From positions 1 to 64,000 of the IMG/VR virus record IMGVR_UViG_3300009506_003033: a stretch of 64,000 bases of DNA; one strand, written 5' to 3'. The notes beneath the pieces are model-generated. The model worked only from the letters and a program-made list of their open reading frames with translations. It had not been told where the DNA came from and ran no database searches. Shown here one piece after another: positions 23,060-55,296 of this stretch; the first letter of the stretch is position 1; every line of letters starts with the position of its first letter. Source of the stretch: a virus. The position numbers were made by a program, and so were the translations under genes.

Positions 23060-23416
23060 CTAGTCGCGACGGGCCACCGAGGCACGTTCGCGTTCCAAAA
23101 TCCGGTAAGCCTCTTCGATCATACCGTCGACGGCTTCTTTTGAAATGTCGACGTTATGTTTCCGAGCCAATGCGGGCCATTCTGTTTTCCAGACATCCAA
23201 GGCATGACATTCGCAACCGATCGCTACGTAGCGCCACGGAATCAGCAAAAAAGCATCTTCGCCATCTATCGTTCCTATGTTAGTATTGTAGCCGTAGCCG
23301 GAGCCGTAGCCGGAGCCGTAGCCGGAGCCGTCGCCGTCGCCGTAGCCGTAGCCGGAGCCGGAGCCGGAGCCGTAGCCGTAGCCGGAGCCGGAGCCGAGAT
23401 GAATATCTATGGCCAT
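23060..23416 (-). CDS. Gly/Ser/Tyr-repeat phage protein
   Basis: GSGSGYGYG repeats (hexamer DNA repeat about 23290-23398) followed by VAIGCECH domain. Confidence 0.6.
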   Translation of the reverse strand: MAIDIHLGSGSGYGYGSGSGSGYGYGDGDGSGYGSGYGSGYGYNTNIGTIDGEDAFLLIPWRYVAIGCECHALDVWKTEWPALARKHNVDISKEAVDGMIEEAYRILERERASVARRD

Positions 23417-23697
23417 GCTTCAATCTCTTTCGCTGCAGTCTGTGATACAGACAGATATTGACAGACATGTTCTGTGGCAGTTACCTCCACAGTATCTGTC
23501 AATTGCGTGTCACCACGCGGACCATTTTGTGCCAAGCCAAATAATCCTTTGCAGGCGGCATCCCAATACAAAACCATTCGTGCGCGATGCAATGTGATCG
23601 GTGATCCGACGATTGGTTCCGCATCAGTCCAACCGTAGACAACACATTTACCAGTTTTGCCACAGCATATTATCCACGATCGTTGATTTGCTGACAT
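23407..23697 (-). CDS. hypothetical phage protein (DUF6948-like)
   Basis: VVYGW...ITLHRARMVLYW..KGLFGLAQNGP; a type often adjacent to Gly-rich genes. Confidence 0.5.
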   Translation of the reverse strand: MSANQRSWIICCGKTGKCVVYGWTDAEPIVGSPITLHRARMVLYWDAACKGLFGLAQNGPRGDTQLTDTVEVTATEHVCQYLSVSQTAAKEIEAWP

Positions 23698-43936: not shown

Positions 43937-44263
43937 ATGGCTATTCCGGCCCCGACATCAGACGCTGATGCCATGTGGACCATGAACCTCAAGGCAATCG
44001 CCGATAGCGGAGCATCACTTATTATGGGTGCTGCTCAAGACGTGAAGCTGAGTCAGGCTAGGCTTGCGATCCTTGGCGAGAACCTGCTGGCCCGCGCTGG
44101 CACGACTTTGGTTCAGCCCGATCCTATCGAGGCGGCTGCGACCAAGCAGATTTTGACGGGTAACGCGATGGGCGACAATGCACTTGTGACGGCTCTCGCA
44201 GCGATTCTATCGAAGGTCAGCTACGGGTTCCCAAATCCGATTCCGGCCGGCGGTACGAGCTAA
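43937..44263 (+). CDS. Ala-rich small protein, possibly RebB/R-body-like
   Basis: AAGGAG RBS; DPIEAAATKQILTGN; followed by a terminator. Confidence 0.35.
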   Translation: MAIPAPTSDADAMWTMNLKAIADSGASLIMGAAQDVKLSQARLAILGENLLARAGTTLVQPDPIEAAATKQILTGNAMGDNALVTALAAILSKVSYGFPNPIPAGGTS

Positions 44264-44297
44264 TCGCGTGCCGTAGAGGCACGTCTACGGCTGCGAT

Positions 44298-44337
44298 AAA
44301 CCTTCACCGGTGGCGTGCCACGCCGCTGGAGGTTTTT
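44298..44337 (+). terminator. intrinsic terminator-like hairpin
   Basis: AAACCTTCACCGG...CCGCTGGAGGTTTTT. Confidence 0.5.
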
Positions 44338-44338
44338 A

Positions 44339-44671
44339 ATGACTGCCAAATTCAATATCGAAGTTCCGGTGACGCTGATCTTTCAGCCTGGTCTCGTTCT
44401 GTTGAAAGCTGGATCTCAGACTTTCAATCTCGCAGCGATTGACACCATTGATGAATTTCGTGTATTGCTGTACGGACTCGCATCTGGGGCCATACAATCA
44501 ATAGCTGGCGATTCTGCGACCAGAGTTGTTGCTCCATCCGACGCCAAGCAAACTGCGGAGGCTGCCGATATAATGGCGGATGCCTTTCGCCGACAGGCCC
44601 AGCGGTCACATCAAAATCTCAAGGAAGCTCAAGAGACTTATGAGGCTGCCGTTGCTGGACTCACCAAGTGA
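44339..44671 (+). CDS. hypothetical protein
   Basis: GGAGG RBS, helical C-terminus. Confidence 0.5.
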   Translation: MTAKFNIEVPVTLIFQPGLVLLKAGSQTFNLAAIDTIDEFRVLLYGLASGAIQSIAGDSATRVVAPSDAKQTAEAADIMADAFRRQAQRSHQNLKEAQETYEAAVAGLTK

Positions 44672-44826
44672 ACCAACAGTAACCGCTACTGAAAAGGTTG
44701 CCGAACTACTGAAGTTTCGCCAGGACAAAAGCGAAGCTCTGAAGGAAATTCTCCGCGAATTGACAGAATACGAAGGTCGGCAAGATGCGAGGATGAAAGA
44801 TTTTCTCGATTATTCGCAGCAATGGA

Positions 44827-45057
44827 TTGCAAAGCAGAAGGAATTGGCAAATGGATGACTTTGGTAGAGAAGAAATTATTGGCATACTTGAAAGAATTGT
44901 GTCGATACAAGTAAGCATGAAAAATCTTCTGGACTCAGATTACACACAACCGATAAATGAACAACTCGCATGTGTAACGAATGACATCGATCTCGTTTTG
45001 GCTGATTTACGAGATGCCAGACGTATAGTTCATAAAAAGGAGTTGGCAAGTGAATGA
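44827..45057 (+). CDS. hypothetical protein
   Basis: coupled small-gene chain. Confidence 0.4.
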   Translation: MQSRRNWQMDDFGREEIIGILERIVSIQVSMKNLLDSDYTQPINEQLACVTNDIDLVLADLRDARRIVHKKELASE

Positions 45058-45268
45058 TTTCGACATCGCAGTCGATGATGATATTGCTGAACTTGTTGAA
45101 TCAGGTAAACTGGACCCGTGGAAAGCCGGTCAGTGTCAGCTCCGACGCGATGTCGCAGAACTCAAAACACAATTGCGAGATGACATCGCAGTCCTTCAAA
45201 AAAAAATGGAAGATCGAATCACAAAGGACAGTTGGCTCAAAATCCGAAGAAGAAATCCTACTGGCTGA
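45050..45268 (+). CDS. hypothetical protein
   Basis: AAGGAG RBS. Confidence 0.45.
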   Translation: MNDFDIAVDDDIAELVESGKLDPWKAGQCQLRRDVAELKTQLRDDIAVLQKKMEDRITKDSWLKIRRRNPTG

Positions 45269-45864
45269 TCGCGGTCTTGATCTTGGCATTCATCGCCGAG
45301 GCCATCATCGGATACTTAATACTGGATCAAGGATTTCTACCGACAATGAATCAACAACAGCCAATTCACATCAAACTGGAGACGCGATGAATCCAAACGA
45401 AAATCATCAATTGATCATAGGCGGGATCACTTTGATTTCAGACGGACGTTTGGCCACTGTGACGAGTCCAGTGTGTGTTTATGAGAATCTGACGCCGGAA
45501 AACGTGCAGGAATTTTGGAATCTGGCCCGATCGAGAGGAGACATCGTAAACGCGATGGATGAATTCCGCGACAAGATGTCTTCGATCTTGATTGATATAG
45601 GCAACGTTCGACAAGCAAAGGCTAAAGGAAATCCAGATGTCAGCATCGATCAATCCACGAAGTAATTTGCTCCGAACAGCACTTCCAAACGAACACGTGG
45701 CGAATTTTCTTCAAGGTCGCAAAGACATGCCAACGCTGCTTGGCACCATCGAATACATGGATGCTGAGATGGCACGTCTAGAAAGCGAGCTGCGAGCAGT
45801 GGAACATCAGAGACCGGGATGCCCGAAGAAATCTGATAATAACGACTGAAAGGAACAGAATCCA

Positions 45865-46206
45865 ATGAAACTGGCTGTTATCGCATCGTTTGTGGCAATA
45901 CTCTTCCTTGTCAGCGCATGTAGTGCTGACGTCATTTATCGTCCCGGATTGCTTCCGGGCGTTTGGTGGGGAATTCAGCCGGCGGGGCCACCGATCACAG
46001 TGCAACCGATGCAACGAGTTCGCATTCGTGTTTTTCGGCCATGGTTCTTGGCTGTGCCGCCGGTCATTCAGTACCCACGAGGACCATATTCACCGGTTCA
46101 GGTAATGCCAGGATCATCGGCGCCAACGTGGGGCGAATATCAGGGTCGATGGGGATGGGGAGTCATTCCACAGCAGAATTCAACCGTAACCAAAGAGGAG
46201 CAATGA
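45865..46206 (+). CDS. putative exported or lipoprotein, Pro-rich
   Basis: signal MKLAVIASFVAILFLVSAC (lipobox-like VSAC). Confidence 0.5.
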   Translation: MKLAVIASFVAILFLVSACSADVIYRPGLLPGVWWGIQPAGPPITVQPMQRVRIRVFRPWFLAVPPVIQYPRGPYSPVQVMPGSSAPTWGEYQGRWGWGVIPQQNSTVTKEEQ

Positions 46207-46496
46207 TGGCAGGACGAGGAAAGAAAGTGTGCCCAGAATGCAGTTCAGAATGCGGCACGAGAAGCAAAGAGTGTCCGAGTTGCAGTCATGTGTTCGCGGC
46301 CAGACGCGAATCGAAGAGGCCGCGAGTGCCAACTGATGCCGAACTAAAGGCACAAGATGTTTCCAGCAACGGAGCCATGATCCAGGCATCGAATGCCTTG
46401 GCGGCAATTGAGGCCGCTCGAAAATTGGTAGACTGTTGCAGCGGAGACGCGGCAGCCGCGAACGAGTTGATTCTATCTATGATCGGCCAAGATTAA
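46203..46496 (+). CDS. zinc-ribbon protein
   Basis: GKKVCPECSSECGTRSKECPSCSHVF; GAGGAG RBS. Confidence 0.6.
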   Translation: MMAGRGKKVCPECSSECGTRSKECPSCSHVFAARRESKRPRVPTDAELKAQDVSSNGAMIQASNALAAIEAARKLVDCCSGDAAAANELILSMIGQD

Positions 46497-46508
46497 AGAG
46501 TCGATGGT

Positions 46509-46575
46509 CGCGAGGCACGATGGACTGCCCCGTCTCGGCTTGGAGCGATGTCGGGACGGGGTTGCCTCGCTTTTT
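46509..46575 (+). terminator. hairpin plus T-tract
   Basis: GCGAGGCA...CCCCGTCTCGGC/GTCGGGACGGGG...TGCCTCGCTTTTT. Confidence 0.55.
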
Positions 46576-46586
46576 GAAAGCAACTC

Positions 46587-47261
46587 ATGCCTGTTTTCTG
46601 TCTTTGCACCGGCCGCTGCGGATCGCAATCTATAGTTGATCTGCTGAAGCGAAACGGCGTCGAAGGCTGTCATCACGAGAAATATCCGGCACTCTTTCGT
46701 GAAGCAATCGGTTATTATTACGGGCTCTACAGTCGGGATCGAATCGTAGCGAAGTTGCGAGAGACGCGGCAGGGCGTGTTCTTCGAGGCCAACAACAAAC
46801 TCTTTCCGTTGGCCAAGCCTCTTTTTCAGGCGTTTCCCGACGCCAAGTTCATGGTTCTGCATCGCGACGGCAGAGAAGTAGTGCGGTCGGCTCTTCAGAG
46901 CAATTGGTATCATCCCAAAGATCCCTATGGCATGTTGAGGCTCGGTGCGAGGATGAGAATCTCGCAGTTCAAGAAGGTGTGTCGATATTGGTCTGAAGTT
47001 TACCGGCGCATCTACGATGATCTGGCATCGCTGGATTGTGAATTCATTGAAGTACGATTCGATGAATTGATCAAAGGCAAATTGGCGGATCAGCTCGGCA
47101 AGTTCATCGGCAGGAGGCTAAGACTTCGCGTGCCGCGGAGACTGCACCGCACGAAGCGATGGACGGTGAAACCATACGCGCAGTGGAAGCCCGAGCGGCA
47201 GCGAGAATTTCGGAGCATCTGCGGCCCGATGATGGAACGGCTGGGATATTCTTTCGATTGA
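46587..47261 (+). CDS. sulfotransferase family protein
   Basis: LCTGRCGSQS, HHE, FPDAKFMVLHRDGREVVRS, VRFDEL, MMERLGY. Confidence 0.8.
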   Translation: MPVFCLCTGRCGSQSIVDLLKRNGVEGCHHEKYPALFREAIGYYYGLYSRDRIVAKLRETRQGVFFEANNKLFPLAKPLFQAFPDAKFMVLHRDGREVVRSALQSNWYHPKDPYGMLRLGARMRISQFKKVCRYWSEVYRRIYDDLASLDCEFIEVRFDELIKGKLADQLGKFIGRRLRLRVPRRLHRTKRWTVKPYAQWKPERQREFRSICGPMMERLGYSFD

Positions 47262-47266
47262 CGGTA

Positions 47267-47294
47267 TTGACAGAATATCGCAGTCGTTTATAAT
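47267..47294 (+). promoter_or_regulatory. consensus sigma70-type promoter for the repeat/Cas7-like locus
   Basis: TTGACA-16-TATAAT. Confidence 0.85.
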
Positions 47295-47308
47295 CTGGTT
47301 TATACGGT

Positions 47309-47408
47309 GTGGCAGCCGAAGAGTCCGGAGAGCCAAAACCCTTCGGTGTTCGCAACGAGCGCTTCTCCGGTGCTCACTGCCACGCGGTCACCGAAGGGTT
47401 TTTGTTTT
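47309..47408 (+). promoter_or_regulatory. attenuator-like leader (C4/CI antisense-type architecture)
   Basis: terminator AAAACCCTTCGGTG/CACCGAAGGGTTTT; loop CTTCTCCGGTGCTC and CTGCCAC complementary to upstream GAGTCCGGAGAG and GTGGCAG. Confidence 0.65.
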
Positions 47409-47419
47409 GATGGAGACGG

Positions 47420-47603
47420 GGCGCGGCGTGGCGCGGCGAGGCATGGCAGGGCGGGGCGGGGCCAGGCAAGGCGAGGCAGGCGTGGCATGGCAGGCGAGGC
47501 AGGCAGGGCTTGGCATGGCAGGCGAGGCGAGGCGCGGCGAGGCGAGGCAGGCAGGGCACGGCAGGGCATGGCAGGGCCAGGCAGGGCGAGGCAGGCATGG
47601 TTT
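47420..47603 (+). repeat. GGY-NN pentamer array 1 (candidate guide-RNA array)
   Basis: GGCGC GGCGT GGCGC GGCGA GGCAT GGCAG ... punctuated by GGCA. Confidence 0.9.
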
Positions 47604-47605
47604 TC

Positions 47606-47635
47606 GTCCGATGTGAGTGCATCGGACACTTTTTT
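47606..47635 (+). terminator. intrinsic terminator after array 1
   Basis: GTCCGATG-TGAGTG-CATCGGAC plus ACTTTTTT. Confidence 0.8.
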
Positions 47636-47673
47636 CCTTTACTGCTGGCACAGGCCAGCAAGGAGTTATTGTC

Positions 47674-48363
47674 ATGGCAAAGGCCAAGAAACCAGAAGGT
47701 ACGATCGAACTTCAGCGGCTCGAAGAGGCCATTCTTGAGGTGCCCATCATCGGCAAGACACCGTTGATCCCGCACAAATGGTCGGAGAAGGCCAAAGGCA
47801 TGATGCCAGGGCATCCTGATCGAGACAAAGTGAAAGCCGATAAGGGTACTCGCGATCCAGCAAAGGAAGCCGAGTCCTGCCAGTACAAACTCGGCGAACA
47901 GTACGCAGTTCCCGCTACTGCGTTCAAAGCGGCTATGATTGGTGCTTGTCGATTCTTCGAGAAGCCTACGATGGTCGAAGCCAAATCGCTGGTGTACGTC
48001 GAAGGTTCTGGCGCTGATCAGCTTGTCGAATTCGACTACAAGGACAAAGAGTTGCACGAGGATACTCCTCGCAACTCAAATGGCAGCGCCGATCTGCGGT
48101 ATCGATACTATTTCACGAACTGGTCAGCTGTTCTGCGAATCTTGTACGTGCCGAAGATCATCTCCCGAGAGTCCATCATTGCTCTTGTTGATGCTGCGGG
48201 CCGCGGAGGCATCGGCGATTGGCGGCCGAGTGCCCCAAAGTCGATGACGGGAACGTACGGCACGTGGCGAGTCGATGATCGCGGCACGATCAGAGACATC
48301 GATCCGAAAGATGTTGACAAGACATCGCCTAAACCAAAGCGGAAAGCATCAAAAGCAATCTGA
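47674..48363 (+). CDS. solo Cas7/RAMP-like RNA-binding protein
   Basis: beta1 LEVPIIGKTPLIPH, YAVPATAFKAAM helix, LRYRYYFTNWSAVLRI, C-terminal Gly-rich loop AAGRGGIGDWRP...GTYGTWRV; AAGGAG RBS. Confidence 0.75.
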   Translation: MAKAKKPEGTIELQRLEEAILEVPIIGKTPLIPHKWSEKAKGMMPGHPDRDKVKADKGTRDPAKEAESCQYKLGEQYAVPATAFKAAMIGACRFFEKPTMVEAKSLVYVEGSGADQLVEFDYKDKELHEDTPRNSNGSADLRYRYYFTNWSAVLRILYVPKIISRESIIALVDAAGRGGIGDWRPSAPKSMTGTYGTWRVDDRGTIRDIDPKDVDKTSPKPKRKASKAI

Positions 48364-48383
48364 TGTTTTGCGGTTGAAGACAT

Positions 48384-49253
48384 GGCAAGGTAAGGCTAGG
48401 CCGGGCATGGCGCGGCAAGGCAAGGCCAGGCGTGGCAGGTTGGGTTCGGCTTGGCAAGGCTGGGCAGGCCAGGCTTGGCATGGCATGACTGGGTCTGGCA
48501 GGGCTCGGCGGGGCTTGGCGAGGCAGGCGAGGCGCGGCCAGGCTTGGCACGGCTTGGCTGGGCCAGGTGAGGCAAGGCAAGGCGTGGCAGGCTAGTCGCG
48601 GCCAGGCATGGCTGGATTAGGTAGGGCTTAGCGAGGCGAGGCACGGCAGGCGTGGCGTGGCGTGGCTAGGCAAGGCATGGCGTGGCAGGCGAGCCAAGGC
48701 TAGGCAAGGCGGGGCAAGGCTGGGCGCGGCAGGGCGAGGCTTGGCTTGGCTCGGCAAGGCGCGGCAGGCGCGGCAGGGCTCGGCGCGGCAAGGCAGGCAA
48801 GGTGTGGCGCGGCATGCGCGGCAAGGCAGGCGAGGCGTGACGAGGCGAGGCCAGGCCCGGCGAGGCGAGGCCAGGCCCGGCGAGGCGAGGCGAGGCGCGG
48901 CGAGGCGAGGCAGGCAGGGCACGGCAGGGCATGGCAGGGCGGGGCAAGGCCGGGCTTGGTTTGGCATGGCAAGGCTGGCGAGGCAGGCAAGGCGAGGCAG
49001 TCGTGGCTTGGCGGGGCATGGCATGGCCTGGCAGGGCAAGGCGCGGTGGGGCTGGGCAAGGCGTGGCAGGCATGGCCCGGCATGGCGCGGCGAGGCGGGA
49101 CAGGGCGGGGCACGGCTGGGCATGGCAAGGCTGGCGAGGCAGGCAAGGCGAGGCAGTCGGGGCTCGGCATGGCGGGGCTGGGCTAGGCCAGGCGTGGCAG
49201 GTTGGGTTCGGCTTGGCAAGGCTGGGCTTGGCCCGGTAAGGCAAGGCGCGGCA
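48384..49253 (+). repeat. GGY-NN pentamer array 2 (about 870 bp)
   Basis: strict 5-nt register of GGC/GGT plus variable dinucleotide, reset roughly 17 times by GGCA tetramers. Confidence 0.95.
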
Positions 49254-49260
49254 GACATGA

Positions 49261-49298
49261 TGCTGGCGGTAAGTGCCGCCAGCAATATTTTCTTTCTC
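49261..49298 (+). terminator. intrinsic terminator after array 2
   Basis: TGCTGGCGG-TAAGTG-CCGCCAGCA plus ATATTTTCTTTCTC. Confidence 0.75.
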
Positions 49299-49331
49299 TA
49301 ACGTTCGCATAGGCGGACAAGGAGTTGTGTT

Positions 49332-50045
49332 ATGGCTAAGGCCAAATCTAGTGTAATCACGATGTCACTGTCTGAACTTGTGGAGGACATGGAATTGTAC
49401 CCGCGGCATGCTGTTGACAATGCACATGTCGCTTCTCTCGTGTTGGCGATGGAATCCGGCAGTCAATTGCCGCCGATCGTCGCTGACAAGAAATCCAAAC
49501 GGATCACTGATGGATGGCATCGGGCCAGGGCCTATGCGCGAATACATGGCCCAACGGCGACTGTAGAGGTCGAACTAATCGACTATGCATCAGAAGCAGA
49601 TATGATTTTTGATGCAGTGCGACGTAATTCTGCTCACGGTCGCAAGCTCGATTCAATGGATCAAACGCGGTCCATCCACATGATGGAAAAACGAGGCTTG
49701 CAATCGATTCAAATCGCGGCTGCCTTGAATGTGCCAGAGAAACGGATCGAGAAGCTGCGGATCAAAGTCGCGAGCAGCCGATCATCCGGGATTGCTACGG
49801 TTCCAGGCACGAAGTCGATCACGTTGAAGCGATCGTGTTCTCACATGGCCGGCAAATCATTGACAGCCGATCAAGTAAAAGTGCACGATTCGGCGCCTGG
49901 AACCAGCTATCTATTGGTTTCACGACAATTGCGAGAGGCACTGCGAGTTGAACTAGTGAATCTCGACGATGAGCGACTGGTGGAAGAACTTTGTGCTCTG
50001 CGTGACGCACTGAATGAGTACTTGGAGCAGCTTTGTGCTGCTTGA
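49332..50045 (+). CDS. ParB/Srx-like N-terminal domain protein
   Basis: LYPR, LPPIVAD..RITDGWHRARAY, RRNSAHGRKL, HTH IQIAAALNVP. Confidence 0.75.
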   Translation: MAKAKSSVITMSLSELVEDMELYPRHAVDNAHVASLVLAMESGSQLPPIVADKKSKRITDGWHRARAYARIHGPTATVEVELIDYASEADMIFDAVRRNSAHGRKLDSMDQTRSIHMMEKRGLQSIQIAAALNVPEKRIEKLRIKVASSRSSGIATVPGTKSITLKRSCSHMAGKSLTADQVKVHDSAPGTSYLLVSRQLREALRVELVNLDDERLVEELCALRDALNEYLEQLCAA

Positions 50046-50051
50046 GGTTTA

Positions 50052-50214
50052 GGTCTGGGCAAGGCGTGGCAAGGCCAGGATGGGCTCGGCGGGGCGTGGC
50101 AGGCAGGGCACGGCAAGGCAGGGCGAGGCCGGGCCAGGCGCGGCATGGCCTGGCATGGCGCGGCGCGGCGAGGCAGGCGAGGCAAGGCGCGGCTTGGTGT
50201 GGCAGGCGAGGCAA
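50052..50214 (+). repeat. GGY-NN pentamer array 3
   Basis: GGCAA GGCGT GGCAA GGCCA ... GGCA punctuation. Confidence 0.9.
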
Positions 50215-50233
50215 GACATCGCGGATATGAAAC

Positions 50234-50458
50234 ATGAAAGGTGTGGCGAATGAAATGAAAACCTACACGAAAACAAAGCTACTGGCATATTACAAAGAGC
50301 TCGGAAAAACGCCGCCTAAGTGGGTGTTGGAGGCGCCGGAGAATGCGTTATTCAATCAAGGCTTGACACCATACGGTCACGTTCCGCTGTATATCAAGGG
50401 GATGCCTGCACCGAAAGCACAACCTGATGTTGTATCAATCGACTTTCCGGACGCTTAG
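50234..50458 (+). CDS. small hypothetical protein between arrays 3 and 4
   Basis: AT-richer ORF MKTYTKTKLLAYYKELGKTPPKW. Confidence 0.5.
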   Translation: MKGVANEMKTYTKTKLLAYYKELGKTPPKWVLEAPENALFNQGLTPYGHVPLYIKGMPAPKAQPDVVSIDFPDA

Positions 50459-50475
50459 AGAAGGCTGGCATTGTA

Positions 50476-50708
50476 GGCGTGGCACGGCCGGGCATGGCTC
50501 GGCAGGGCGCGGCCAGGCGCGGCCAGGCGTGGCAGGCGTGGCAGGCGTGGCTTGGCGCGGCAAGGATAGGCAAGGCAAGGCTAGGTTTGGCGAGGCGCGG
50601 CGAGGCCGAGCTCGGCGCGGCTGGCTTGGCATGGCTTGGCGAGGGCCGGTTTGGCCAGGCGCGGCATGGCTTGGCATGGCGCGGCGCGGCGAGGCAGGCG
50701 AGGTGCGG
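50476..50708 (+). repeat. GGY-NN pentamer array 4
   Basis: GGCGT GGCAC GGCCG GGCAT GGCTC ...; shares 50/51 nt with array 3. Confidence 0.9.
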
Positions 50709-50769
50709 ACAAACAACTCTCCCAAAACCCAACCCACTTGTTACACTATGGATAGCAAAGGAGGTGCCA

Positions 50770-51939
50770 GTGACATTGCAGGTAGAGACAGTGCCGATTG
50801 ACAGCGTGAGTCCTGATCCGGCGAACACGATGAACCATCCACCGCGGAACATCTCTGCCATTGAGGGATCGCTGAAGCGGTTCGGACTTCGTAAGCCGAT
50901 CGTCGTCGATAGCAACGGGGTCATCAGGGCCGGCAATGGGACATGGCAGGCAGCCAAGAATCTCGGCTGGCAAACAATTGATGTTGCACGGACTAATCTC
51001 GCTGGTTCCGAGGCAACGGCCTATTCCATCGCTGACAATCGCACGGCTGAACTGGCGGAATGGAACGAGGAGTTACTGGCTAGACTCTTGCCGGAGATGG
51101 ATTACGAGTTGCAACTCGCTACCGGATTTGATGAGGACGATCTGAAAGAGTTGTTCGCTGAACAATTGAACAACACGGACAGCGAGATAGATCGTGAACC
51201 ACTTATCGATAAGGCCGGAGAACTTCAGAGGAAATGGAAGGTTGAGTTGGGCCAATTCTGGCAAATTGATCGGCACCTTGTATATTGCGGGGATGCTCTT
51301 GACTGGTCTTACGAAGCAGATGGAGTTTGCACCGATCCACCGTATGACATGAGTTGCGAAACGATTCGAACGGTCGTCCGTCAATATGCAAAAGTAGCAG
51401 CTGTTATCTGTACGGGACGCCAGGCATTCAATTTAGCGAGGGATGGATGGGAATATGCAATGGACTTATGTTGGAGTCATAAATCTCCACGATCAATCAA
51501 CACGAAGCGTACGCCATTGTTCTACCACGCGAATGTTGTCGTGATGAATCTGGGCGGAAACAAGACCGACTGGACGCGACCGAGGCCAAATTACGGCAGT
51601 CTATTACATCACGAATACGAGGACTGGGGAGGCCACGGCCAAGGCAAGTCGCCGAACTTATTCGCAGAAATTATGGAAGGATTTCCCTGGGAAACGATGG
51701 CTGATCCTTTCGCCGGAACGCTTGCGACACTTATTGCGGCTCACAAACAAGGCAGAACATTCATTGGATGCGAAAAAGAGCCAAAAATGCTGGCGGTAGG
51801 GCTTGAACGTTGCAGCCTATTGTGTCCTAAGGTGTTGACAGACAAGCAGTTGAGTCGGTATAATGCGGGAAAGCTTGCTGGTGGTCAGCAAGCGATCCCG
51901 AAACATGCTCGAACTGTGAAGGAGTCCGAGAATGTCTGA
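50770..51939 (+). CDS. ParB-like domain fused to a DNA methylase
   Basis: AAGGAGG RBS plus GTG; SLKRFGLRKPIVVD..IRAGNGT, IADNRTAELAEW, TDPPY, ADPFAGT. Confidence 0.8.
   Translation: MTLQVETVPIDSVSPDPANTMNHPPRNISAIEGSLKRFGLRKPIVVDSNGVIRAGNGTWQAAKNLGWQTIDVARTNLAGSEATAYSIADNRTAELAEWNEELLARLLPEMDYELQLATGFDEDDLKELFAEQLNNTDSEIDREPLIDKAGELQRKWKVELGQFWQIDRHLVYCGDALDWSYEADGVCTDPPYDMSCETIRTVVRQYAKVAAVICTGRQAFNLARDGWEYAMDLCWSHKSPRSINTKRTPLFYHANVVVMNLGGNKTDWTRPRPNYGSLLHHEYEDWGGHGQGKSPNLFAEIMEGFPWETMADPFAGTLATLIAAHKQGRTFIGCEKEPKMLAVGLERCSLLCPKVLTDKQLSRYNAGKLAGGQQAIPKHARTVKESENV
51835..51864 (+). promoter_or_regulatory. internal sigma70-type promoter
   Basis: TTGACA-18-TATAAT; spacer contains AGCAGTTGAG, also in the 26612 promoter. 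Confidence 0.6.
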
Positions 51940-52720
51940 AGCTATTTTAGCGGAATCGTTGCCGAAAGGAATTAAGTCAACCAAGATAGCGTGGACGGAC
52001 ACCACGCTCAATTTTTGGATCGGCTGCCAGAAGATCAGTCCTGGCTGTAAGAACTGCTACGCCGAGCGGATTGTCAGAGATCGGATGGGTCGCGAGCACT
52101 GGGCCACATCGCCACGATGGCGGACGAAAGCGGCATGGGATGATGCCTATCGCTACAACCGAATCGCCAAGAATGCTGGGCGTCGAATCATGGTATTCGC
52201 CAACGACATGTCTGATTGGGCTGAAGATCATCCCGATGTCAATCGTTGGCGATGGGACATGTGGCGGGTGATCAAGGAATGCCGCTGGCTTGACTGGCAG
52301 CTACTGACAAAAAGAGCCGATCGCATCGCAAGATGCTTGCCAGCGGACTGGAATGATGGATACCCGAACGTCTGGCTTGGTGTTTCGATCGAATCGGATG
52401 ATTATTGCTGGCGAGCTGATAGGCTCCGGGAAGTAAATTCTGGAATCAGATTCATCAGTTATGAACCGGCATTAGGTCCGCTCGATAGCCTCGATCTAGC
52501 TGGTATTGACTGGCTGATCATCGGCGGAGAATCAGGACCGCATTATCGGCCGTTCGATCACAATTGGGCTCGGGAGCTACGAGTACGATGCGCCCTGTCG
52601 AACACAGCATTTTTCTTCAAGCAATCAGCTGCCATCAGGACAGAGATGGGGATAGAACTTGATGGGGCAATCGTCAGGGAATACCCAAAAGTGATGTCAG
52701 ATCTAGTAGGTGTGGGATAG
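51932..52720 (+). CDS. phage Gp37/Gp68 (DUF5131) radical-SAM-like protein
   Basis: TKIAWTD.TLN, GCQKISPGCKNCYAE, QLLTKR, WLGVSIE, FISYEP, DWLIIGGESG, FFFKQ. Confidence 0.9.
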   Translation: MSEAILAESLPKGIKSTKIAWTDTTLNFWIGCQKISPGCKNCYAERIVRDRMGREHWATSPRWRTKAAWDDAYRYNRIAKNAGRRIMVFANDMSDWAEDHPDVNRWRWDMWRVIKECRWLDWQLLTKRADRIARCLPADWNDGYPNVWLGVSIESDDYCWRADRLREVNSGIRFISYEPALGPLDSLDLAGIDWLIIGGESGPHYRPFDHNWARELRVRCALSNTAFFFKQSAAIRTEMGIELDGAIVREYPKVMSDLVGVG

Positions 52721-52722
52721 TA

Positions 52723-53355
52723 ATGGCTGCCACCATAGAGAACAGGACGAACGGCGCCGACATCGCGAAGATGTCTGCGATGCAGCAGAAATTCTGCCTG
52801 GAGATGTTGGCGGACGAGAAATACAACGCCACGGAGGCTGCCAGAAAGGCAGGATATTCTCAGCCGAATACGGCCGCTTTCAAACTCTTAGCCAATCCCG
52901 CTATCAAGCGGTATCTAGGCAAGGCCAAGCGACTCAGGGAAGAGCGGACACAGCTTACAAGCGACGACATTTGGCGGCAGTTGCATCGTGCGATATTCTT
53001 CGATCCGGCAGAAGTTTTCGAGAGTGCCGGCAGGGGATGGTGGATACTGAAGGCACTGAATGACATCCCGGTCGAAATTCGCCAGCTCATTGAAGAGATT
53101 CACATCACTACGCGGCAAGTGACGGTTCCGATTCGGGATGCGACCAGCGGGCACGTCACGGGGACGAAAGTCATCGACATGCCGTTGCCACGGCTGAAGT
53201 TCATCAGCAAGAGCGGTGCACTTGCAACAGCGGCCAAGCACAGCATACCTCAGCAGGTCGAGGTGAGCATCGACTACGAAAAGCTGTACCGATCCAACCG
53301 CGACGAACCCAACGAGATCGAAGGGGAGATTCTCAAGATTGAAAGGGGTGAATGA
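52723..53355 (+). CDS. terminase small subunit
   Basis: QQKFCLE...NATEAARKAGYS...AAFKLLANPAI. Confidence 0.85.
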   Translation: MAATIENRTNGADIAKMSAMQQKFCLEMLADEKYNATEAARKAGYSQPNTAAFKLLANPAIKRYLGKAKRLREERTQLTSDDIWRQLHRAIFFDPAEVFESAGRGWWILKALNDIPVEIRQLIEEIHITTRQVTVPIRDATSGHVTGTKVIDMPLPRLKFISKSGALATAAKHSIPQQVEVSIDYEKLYRSNRDEPNEIEGEILKIERGE

Positions 53356-53358
53356 AGC

Positions 53359-53577
53359 ATGAGGATTAGTACATCCGAGGACATGGCGGCATTCATCCAG
53401 GAAACGCTGTATCCAGATGCTGATAGGATGTTGGCGATAGTGAAGGAACATGGCTGGTGGAAAAGGGATCGGCTGGCCCACATGAGTGCACGATGGATGC
53501 TGATTCATCTAATCCGAATGGAGACTTCCGACCAAGAATGTCATGCCCGCATTGTTCAGAAGTGTCGCAAGCGGTGA
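53359..53577 (+). CDS. hypothetical protein
   Basis: coupled ORF between the terminase subunits. Confidence 0.4.
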   Translation: MRISTSEDMAAFIQETLYPDADRMLAIVKEHGWWKRDRLAHMSARWMLIHLIRMETSDQECHARIVQKCRKR

Positions 53578-53822
53578 TGTGTCTCAAATATGGTGGCGAT
53601 ATCTACAAATGTGCGGCATGCGGTTCTACTTGGTCCAAGAGGTATCGTCATCGGGACATGGGTGTAGGAACTAAGAAAAAGGTGTGTGCCCGATGTGGCG
53701 AAGTGCGAGAGCACGAGGATCTCACCTATCATAGCTTGTGGTGTCATTGCGATTTGGATGAGGATTGTGATCACGGTCTGTGCGATGATTGCCTGTGCGA
53801 AGTGTTAGATGGCGATGGATAA
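53574..53822 (+). CDS. Cys-rich zinc-finger protein
   Basis: CAACG, CARCG, CHC, LCDDC. Confidence 0.45.
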   Translation: MMCLKYGGDIYKCAACGSTWSKRYRHRDMGVGTKKKVCARCGEVREHEDLTYHSLWCHCDLDEDCDHGLCDDCLCEVLDGDG

Positions 53823-55296
53823 CATCGTAGTCGATCCGATTGAATTTGCTCGGGTTCACTGGCCGGACATACGCTTTTACAAGCAGCAGCAGGACATCAT
53901 CTATTCTGTAGTAGAGAACGATGAGACGGTGGTGCCAGCTGGTAATGAACTGGGCAAAGACTTTGTAGCGGCATTCATCATTCTCTGGTTCTTCTGCAGC
54001 CGCCTTCCCGCCCGAATCGTAGCTACCGGTCCAAGTGAAAGACAAGTCGAGGACGTGCTATGGGGGGAAATCAAGCGATTCGTCGACACGTCAAAGTACA
54101 AACTTCCCGTAGTCTATTCTCATATGCTCTTGAGGCGAACGAGAAGAGACGGATCCATCGTGCCAGCCTGTGAAGTACGGGGACAGGTGGCACAAAAGGG
54201 CGAATCATTACTTGGTAGACATACGCCGCGGGGACTGGGTGGATTGCCGATGACCATGGCAGTATTCGATGAAGGTTCTGGAATCGACGATATGCCGTAT
54301 CAGTCGAGTGACACCTGGGCACATCGCAAGCTCATAATTGGTAACCCGCGGCCCTGCACGAATTTCTTTTTCCATGCAGTGCAAAGTGGTGACAAGCGAT
54401 CTCCGGCGAACAATCATTATTGGCGCAAAGTAATCAGGATACGAGCAGATGACAGTCCGAACGTTAGGGCGGGGCGGGCCGGACTGCAAAAGATACTTGT
54501 GCCTGGGTTAGTCACTTGGGAAGATTATCAGAAGCGGCGTGCCCAGTGGGGACGAGAACAACAGGCATGGGGGCTCGATGCAGAATTCTACGAAGGTCCC
54601 GAACTCAAGCTTTTCCCGGCCGAATGGCTCAATCGGGCCGAGGCGGCAGCTGACGGCGGTGTGAAGCCGAAGGGACGAATTACTATAGGTAGCGATCCAG
54701 CGGAGGGCGGCGACAGCACGGTGTGGGCAGTCGTCTGCGAGAACGGACTGCTTGAACTGGTGAGCATGAAGACTCCGAATACGGCGGTCATCAGCAACTG
54801 GACGCTCGGACTGATGCGAAAATGGCATGTGCAGCCCGAGGATGTCTATCTGGATCAAGGTGGTGGCGGGAAGGAACATGCTGACTATCTTCGGGAAAAG
54901 GGATATCCTGTACAGACGGTGGCCTTCGGCAAGCCGGTGAACGCGGACGGCGGAATGGTGACGTTTTGGGAGAAGCGGGACATGCGGGAACAAGGCTACG
55001 GCTACAAGAATCGTCGGGCCCAGATGTACGATCTCATCAGTCAGAGATTGAATCCCGACAACGGTTCCCCGTTCGCTATAGGCAGGGAACACGCGGAACT
55101 GCGGCGGCAACTCAGCCCCATTCCCCGCTTGTACGATGGAGAGGGTAGAATGTATTTGCCTCCGAAGAGGAAAGTGCCTCACAGCAACGTGCAGACGATG
55201 ATCGACTTATGTGGTCATAGTCCGGACGAGGCGGATGCATTGGCCTTGGCGGTATACGGGTTGTCACAGGAGCGATTCGAGATAGGGCCGATTTAG
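53809..55296 (+). CDS. terminase large subunit
   Basis: Walker A AGNELGKD, Walker B VFDEG, IIGNP, nuclease GSDPAEGGDST, SPDEADALAL. Confidence 0.9.
   Translation: MAMDNIVVDPIEFARVHWPDIRFYKQQQDIIYSVVENDETVVPAGNELGKDFVAAFIILWFFCSRLPARIVATGPSERQVEDVLWGEIKRFVDTSKYKLPVVYSHMLLRRTRRDGSIVPACEVRGQVAQKGESLLGRHTPRGLGGLPMTMAVFDEGSGIDDMPYQSSDTWAHRKLIIGNPRPCTNFFFHAVQSGDKRSPANNHYWRKVIRIRADDSPNVRAGRAGLQKILVPGLVTWEDYQKRRAQWGREQQAWGLDAEFYEGPELKLFPAEWLNRAEAAADGGVKPKGRITIGSDPAEGGDSTVWAVVCENGLLELVSMKTPNTAVISNWTLGLMRKWHVQPEDVYLDQGGGGKEHADYLREKGYPVQTVAFGKPVNADGGMVTFWEKRDMREQGYGYKNRRAQMYDLISQRLNPDNGSPFAIGREHAELRRQLSPIPRLYDGEGRMYLPPKRKVPHSNVQTMIDLCGHSPDEADALALAVYGLSQERFEIGPI

Follow-up and report, generated by a model that had tools for sequence, protein, structure and literature searches.

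Four tracts of a 5-nucleotide (nt) unit, GGC followed by two variable bases (NN), occupy the plus strand between positions 47,400 and 50,710 of a 64,000-nt stretch of the 84.5-kb viral record IMGVR_UViG_3300009506_003033. This stretch is referred to as the window, and all coordinates are given on it. Judged by their sequence, the four tracts (A1 to A4, 47420-50706) are vrRNA guide arrays of a phage VIPR system of the staggered-array kind, and a gene for a small Vipr homologue (vipr) lies between A1 and A2. Five repeated stretches were found in these arrays. We consider it likely that the window carries a phage VIPR locus with staggered arrays, that the five repeats are real copy events in its guide store, and that such arrays change by copying, slippage and loss.

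VIPR was first described in 2026 as a CRISPR-like DNA silencer (bioRxiv 10.64898/2026.04.26.720920). As set out in the main text and legends of that preprint, it consists of a small RAMP-like Vipr protein and vrRNAs of 9-16 YNNGG repeats, whose NN bases read double-stranded DNA with every third base skipped. Seven types are distinguished there, one of them with 'staggered arrays with overlapping vrRNAs', in which adjacent vrRNAs come from positions with a 1-nt overlap (legend of fig. S18). The RAMP fold of Vipr comprises an RRM core, a glycine-rich loop and a thumb; the structure is the subject of a companion preprint (10.64898/2026.04.26.720927), other preprints deal with a satellite conflict and with VIPR arrays recovered by a language model, and VIPR was proposed in 2026 as a CRISPR ancestor without an adaptation module.

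Identification of the locus as a VIPR system

The 229-amino-acid (aa) product of the gene between A1 and A2 has no Pfam match. A family profile was built from an alignment of 26 sequences, in which a glycine-rich conserved motif is visible. This profile matches PDB entry 36pp_D, 'SUSP1 Vipr protein', with an E value of 2.5e-6 (query positions 143-188), and hhalign aligns it with the homologue of Escherichia phage wV8 at 95.6% probability (E 1.3e-8). Among 71 viral loci encoding vipr homologues, 52 have at least 20 chained GGY pentamers on the strand of the gene.

A 7-unit GGCNN pattern has 57 matches in the whole 84.5-kb record, all on the plus strand and all inside A1-A4, and the reversed control has none. 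When the tracts are split at each GGC, 267 units are obtained (209 pentamers, 28 tetramers and 30 irregular units), with a total length of about 1,460 nt across the four arrays; none of the 53 array sets examined has an array longer than A2. The odd base of the tetramers (GGC-N-GGC) is A in 24 cases and T in the remaining 4. Since GGCA followed by GGC looks like a 1-nt overlap of two pentamer registers, the tetramers may be read as guide boundaries, and the stretches that they delimit are called segments here. Distances from tetramer to tetramer are most often 59 or 64 nt (one tetramer together with 11 or 12 pentamers), and the same holds for three other loci (L010, L012 and L044). The window thus presents a Vipr homologue, same-strand GGY-NN arrays beside vipr, and a staggered architecture with 1-nt overlap tetramers. 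An Rfam scan of positions 44000-54000 gave no match.

Further examination of the variable bases revealed that their dinucleotide usage follows that of sense codon positions 1-2 in 36 long open reading frames (ORFs) of the same record (r = 0.85), compared with r of 0.28 or less for the other five phase and strand models. Dinucleotides beginning with C (CT, CC and CG) are scarce at the NN positions. Such tracking of codon positions 1-2 is expected of guides that are directed against coding DNA and skip the wobble base. Together with family membership, this codon-like usage suggests a guide role for the array segments.

Repeated blocks within and between the arrays

The first-pass annotation, made from the letters alone, had listed four long identities among the arrays and ascribed them to recombination. 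All four were reproduced exactly: 47521-47577 equals 48884-48940 (57/57), 48424-48465 equals 49186-49227 (42/42), 48963-49003 equals 49119-49159 (41/41), and 50132-50182 agrees with 50653-50703 at 50 of 51 positions. The maximal exact extents of these four dispersed blocks (Blocks 1 to 4) are 58, 43, 41 and 32 nt, respectively. A fifth pair, absent from that annotation, is a tandem repeat with a 20-nt period (48841-48871 and 48861-48891, 31 nt). These five are the only exact matches of at least 20 nt among the four arrays.

The blocks are far longer than the composition of the arrays would give. When the 267 units were permuted within each array, the longest shared block in 300 shuffles averaged 21.4 nt (standard deviation 2.5, maximum 29), against the 58 nt observed. 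Windows of 60 nt at 85% identity or more were found in the same five places only, whose number in 30 unit shuffles averaged 0.33 and never exceeded 2. The blocks also end abruptly. Their 40-nt flanks match at 6-28 of 40 positions, where random array pairs average 14.1 and have their 95th percentile at 25, and the left flank of Block 3 (28/40) is close to the calculated identity of unrelated in-phase arrays (~72%). It had been claimed that the blocks are joined to different flanks, and flank identity does fall to the level of unrelated array stretches. A 156-nt 'period' reported in A2 by Tandem Repeats Finder was considered as a diverged duplication and rejected, with about 70% identity outside the 41-nt block compared with the ~72% expected for unrelated in-phase arrays.

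The claim that the blocks often span a GGCA boundary was likewise borne out, as each of the four dispersed blocks holds at least one 4-nt GGCA or GGCT unit. In A1, Block 1 takes up a whole 29-nt segment and runs 28 nt into the 44-nt segment that follows; in A2, it takes up the final 29 nt of an 84-nt segment and runs 28 nt into a 64-nt segment. Both copies of Block 3 start 14 nt before the end of a 64-nt segment, pass through a 9-nt segment and extend 18 nt into the one after it, and Blocks 2 and 4 each cross a tetramer. In no case does a dispersed block have the same extent as a segment. Since the blocks straddle tetramers and have unrelated flanks, they appear to be copied patches and not whole guides, and since they cut across segment boundaries, the segments involved are chimeras by comparison with their partners. 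The chimerism foreseen in the first-pass annotation is accordingly visible in the segments, and guide activity of the chimeras is putative.

The blocks are not conserved in the other loci compared (L009-L094), in which the longest word shared with them is 25 nt. In 8 of 52 other array-bearing loci, a repeated block is longer than in all of 100 shuffles. Moreover, L027 and L044/L045 have a block of 46-47 nt common to the arrays on both sides of vipr, like Block 1. A direct repeat of 46-58 nt is seen to flank vipr in three separate lineages (the window with its Block 1, L027, and L044/L045). Recombination between such repeats would delete vipr and leave the arrays, which recalls the 'VIPR-null solo vrRNA' phages named in a further preprint (10.64898/2026.10.15.759431).

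Assembly support for the blocks

The record was checked against the Logan contigs of two samples, both from a single marine-sediment study. The Logan pieces listed match the window with 0 or 1 differing letters, and they cover six block-to-flank junctions (47519/47520, 47577/47578, 48465/48466, 48940/48941, 49184/49185 and 49227/49228), which argues that the two-context nature of the blocks is real. In sample X2, the 58-nt block forms a contig of its own with a word depth of 18.3, compared with 6.8-13.4 in the neighbouring pieces, depth being a weak measure. Four low-depth joints (depth 2.2-6.9, sides of 22-28 nt) and loose ends with other pentamers were also seen; sides below 30 nt are often foreign or repeat sequence, and nothing was concluded from them.

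Array turnover in related phages

The vipr family is present in 27 Mycobacterium phage and 5 Gordonia phage records. For a comparison of alleles, the array upstream of vipr was taken from 17 Cheoctovirus mycobacteriophage genomes, along with flanks of 270 nt upstream and 1,100 nt downstream. The arrays are not invariant among these relatives: the 17 genomes have 10 array alleles and 23 segment types, with near-identical flanks within two groups. In the first group (Donkeykong, Pippy, Brocalys, LastJedi and Clifton), the flanks are 100% identical over 1,370 nt, and the Donkeykong array equals that of the other four phages except for two additional whole segments (113 nt) and one substituted NN base. 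The second group comprises nine phages whose flanks are 99.9-100% identical to those of SwagPigglett, and it has six alleles; one of its members, ByChance, is without one 59-nt segment. DRBy19, Philus, Saal and Gorge show a difference of one GGCCC or GGCGA unit at places where identical units adjoin, and Mattes shows one substitution. Within segments, one Donkeykong segment is an internal duplication, one 2-unit mycobacteriophage segment equals the 3' end of a longer segment and looks like its remnant, and Quico and Florinda have a 9-unit core in common with another segment but with different ends.

Arrays of this family evidently change at a much higher rate than the sequence beside them, in steps that preserve the 5-nt register. 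The commonest change among relatives is in the copy number of a single unit, which looks more like slippage than like homologous recombination. The proposal that segments are shuffled by homologous recombination therefore stands in part. The blocks are genuine copies in unrelated contexts, and most of the changes in the relatives are single-unit and slippage-like.

Several annotated genes touch these arrays. GenBank records have 'hypothetical protein' genes over arrays, or a vipr ORF extended into an array, at L080 2489-2875 (Donkeykong gene 48), L082/L083 1602-1790, L085 336-500 and L086 356-1288. Such mycobacteriophage gene calls over pentamer arrays are probably spurious ORFs on non-coding guide arrays. 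In Mycobacterium phage Gorge, a single coding sequence of 1,218 nt (gene 54, L092 542-1759) takes in both the vipr ORF and the gene after it. The tblastn match to it falls in two pieces, and this gene may contain a frameshift or be a fusion.

Search for targets

The longest clean guide runs were recoded by the published xNN rule. In the genome of the virus itself, with the arrays masked, the best target match reached 19 of 28 positions, which is the chance level, and exact target patterns had no match in viral_contigs, metagenome_contigs or genome_contigs. For a mycobacteriophage guide, the 11-unit form had no match at up to 3 mismatches in five whole phage records. Its 9-unit core had two matches in viral_contigs, on unrelated contigs and with no extension, and these were judged to be due to chance.

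Origin of the repeated blocks

In this reading, one of the copy events is a tandem duplication of four units, and the other four are dispersed patches of 41-58 nt, copied within or between arrays and ignoring segment boundaries. Turnover in this family comprises the gain and loss both of single 5-nt units and of whole segments, together with sharing of patches and single NN substitutions. Non-reciprocal recombination, template switching or slippage may give rise to the patches, and the periodicity of GGC would favour such events. Copy events followed by selection could be the way in which the guide set changes.

Several observations weigh against this reading. The alignment with Vipr is limited to the last ~50 C-terminal residues around GxGDWRP. 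Many segments in the window are well under 59 nt (4-19 nt), which implies that tetramers are not always guide ends or that the array consists in part of debris. The short-read contigs all break off in or at a repeated block, no array is covered from end to end by a single one, and independent support does not extend to the pairing of left with right flanks (the long-range order). The relatives that show turnover have only about 50% Vipr identity to the window, the closest relative available for this phage is at 62%, and a verbatim 36-nt core of Block 1 has no match in metagenome_contigs. No target was found in the searches above for any guide of the window or of the mycobacteriophages. Finally, copying accounts for shared patches and for lost or duplicated segments, and not for the origin of wholly new segments.

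The alternatives differ in what they make of the blocks. It is highly improbable that a short-read metagenome assembler made the blocks or their joins. Such an origin would agree with Logan contigs that all end inside or at blocks and never cover an array end to end, and with the rank of A2 as the longest of 53 sets. Against it stand the six junctions covered in two samples with 0 or 1 other letters, the depth in X2, which is what a true two-copy repeat would give (again a weak measure), other loci that too have arrays on both sides of vipr with blocks common to them, and the same kind of array in isolate mycobacteriophage genomes. The blocks might instead be conserved functional modules, such as processing or boundary signals between guides, kept identical by selection and not recent copies. 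Tetramer boundaries do occur in all four dispersed blocks, and the two copies of Block 2 sit close to opposite ends of A2. In addition, a motif inside Block 2 (GGCGT-GGCAGG followed by two or three A/T) is seen again in several lineages, 17/17 mycobacteriophages among them, at array ends or close to them, which keeps the boundary-module reading alive for Block 2. But each block occurs only twice among ~28 boundaries, no other locus has more than 25 nt in common with any block, and the bulk of each block is ordinary variable NN content, and we regard such modules as quite unlikely.

Duplicates could also be kept for useful redundancy from separate transcription units, or could have originated independently against one target through the deterministic code. 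Block 1 is indeed present both in A1, which has promoter-like and terminator-like sites of its own, and in A2 downstream of vipr, and blocks common to both sides of vipr recur in L027 and L044/L045. Redundancy is countered by the blocks not being whole segments: two half-guides are duplicated, not a guide. Independent origin would call for 22 matching NN bases and the same internal tetramer, which is very hard to obtain without a templated mechanism, and we know of no templated guide-writing mechanism. Either version appears very unlikely.

As to the agent, the first-pass annotation had named the RecT/YqaJ pair of the phage itself (27550-30554). The YqaJ-type exonuclease is well matched (77 bits) and accompanied by a weak RecT-like ORF, and single-strand annealing recombinases use homologies of a few tens of bases, which is the size of the blocks. 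However, the RecT match is under the Pfam cut-off (23.3 versus 24 bits), and the dominant changes in relatives are single-unit slips for which no recombinase is needed; catalysis of the shuffling by this pair is thus unlikely. The same annotation had set the process apart from Cas1-type acquisition, and this part was upheld: Cas1 (PF01867) had no match in the 84.5-kb record, in a search whose control matched 7 of 14 known genomes. Neither a Cas1 gene nor a repeat-spacer array marks the locus as CRISPR-Cas.

A more far-reaching idea, offered tentatively and considered rather less likely than not, is that VIPR arrays are built-in diversity generators, constantly yielding length variants and chimeric guides that are sorted by selection from rival phages. 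As every unit has GGC, slippage and short-patch copying would always keep the register. If true, diversity generation would be the VIPR counterpart of Cas1-driven adaptation, and it would also explain the direct repeats around vipr, a possible cause of the loss of vipr in 'solo vrRNA' phages.

Other features of the locus

Coordinates of the arrays, blocks and neighbouring features are collected in Table 1. Between the promoter-like site and A1 lies a leader of ~110 nt (47295-47410) that closes, by eye, with a GC-rich hairpin and a T run. Another perfect match to the sigma-70 consensus (12/12) is found at 51835-51864, inside the end of a further ORF of the locus, which combines ParB_N and a DNA methylase, and just 5' of a DUF5131 gene. 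Homologues of the 237-aa ParB-like protein (32-39% identity) are encoded directly 3' of vipr in 4 of 13 related loci (L010, L014, L019 and L025), which makes its gene a candidate accessory (vap) gene of this VIPR clade; 'ParB' does not occur as a word in the main text of 10.64898/2026.04.26.720920. A weak NinG match also lies within 27.5-31.1 kb, the region of the recombination genes.

Elsewhere in the window, a GCC-rich stretch at 23258-23426 was considered as a related array and rejected, as it is a minus-strand coding hexamer repeat (GGCTCC/GGCTAC). This repeat begins just past an ATG and would encode a stretch rich in Gly-Ser and Gly-Tyr.

Table 1. Arrays, repeated blocks and other features of the window
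Feature	Start	End	Strand	Remarks
RecT-like ORF	27550	28263	+	23.3 bits, below the Pfam cut-off of 24 bits
YqaJ-type exonuclease ORF	29664	30554	+	77.2 bits
Promoter-like site	47267	47294	+	Perfect sigma-70 consensus (12/12), 5' of A1
vrRNA array A1	47420	47600	+	GGCNN pentamers and GGCA tetramers
Block 1, copy a	47520	47577	+	58 nt, in A1
Intrinsic-terminator-like hairpin and T run	47606	47627	+	3' of A1
vipr gene	47674	48363	+	229 aa, phrog_4652; C-terminal GxGDWRP region matches SUSP1 Vipr
vrRNA array A2	48384	49256	+	~873 nt; carries four block copies and the tandem pair
Block 2, copy a	48423	48465	+	43 nt, in A2
Tandem duplication	48841	48891	+	20-nt (4-unit) stretch, 31-nt overlapping exact match
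Block 1, copy b	48883	48940	+	In A2
Block 3, copy a	48963	49003	+	41 nt, spans two tetramers, in A2
Block 3, copy b	49119	49159	+	In A2
Block 2, copy b	49185	49227	+	In A2
Intrinsic-terminator-like hairpin and T run	49261	49284	+	3' of A2
ParB-like gene	49332	50045	+	237 aa, candidate accessory (vap) gene
vrRNA array A3	50058	50218	+	
Block 4, copy a	50132	50182	+	50/51 identical to copy b, exact core 50151-50182, in A3
74-aa ORF	50234	50458	+	A3-A4 interval, without family match
vrRNA array A4	50463	50706	+	
Block 4, copy b	50653	50703	+	3' end of A4

Comparison with known systems

The VIPR system itself has already been published (2026 preprints), and the window is an unusually large example of it. 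A word search of the main texts of the VIPR preprints found no treatment of how VIPR arrays change; what comes nearest in them is a broad comment about 'acquisition of a new vrRNA' and about locus exchange among phages. As VIPR has no adaptation module, the way in which its guide sets change matters, and the window points to patches copied across guide boundaries. The mycobacteriophage isolates offer a natural series (10 alleles on two backgrounds) in which slippage, gain and loss of segments, and patch copying could be measured. From a practical point of view, short-read assemblies are broken by such arrays, and GenBank phage records list the arrays as protein-coding genes.

As in the published staggered VIPR, same-strand GGY-NN arrays stand on either side of a small Vipr homologue in a provirus, adjoining segments overlap by 1 nt at the GGCA tetramer, NN usage resembles that of codon positions 1-2, and there is no CRISPR array and no Cas1. 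Unlike the studied type II VIPR, with its vrRNAs of 9-16 repeats, the window has far longer arrays, of ~1,460 nt and 267 units. It also departs from published VIPR in that its arrays are without a conserved 3' tail, include many very short segments, and have a ParB-like neighbour gene.

CRISPR arrays resemble the present ones as guide stores that differ between close relatives, with duplications and deletions via recombination of repeated parts. In contrast to CRISPR, the window is without long repeats, spacers and Cas1/Cas2, and its information lies at 2 of every 5 bases, so that target DNA could not simply be inserted. Simple-sequence contingency loci, which vary by slipped-strand mispairing at short tandem repeats, are another parallel, in that relatives gain or lose single units where identical units (GGCCC, GGCGA) adjoin. 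Unlike those loci, the units of the arrays carry variable information, and slippage alone fails to account for patches of 41-58 nt and for insertions and deletions of whole segments.

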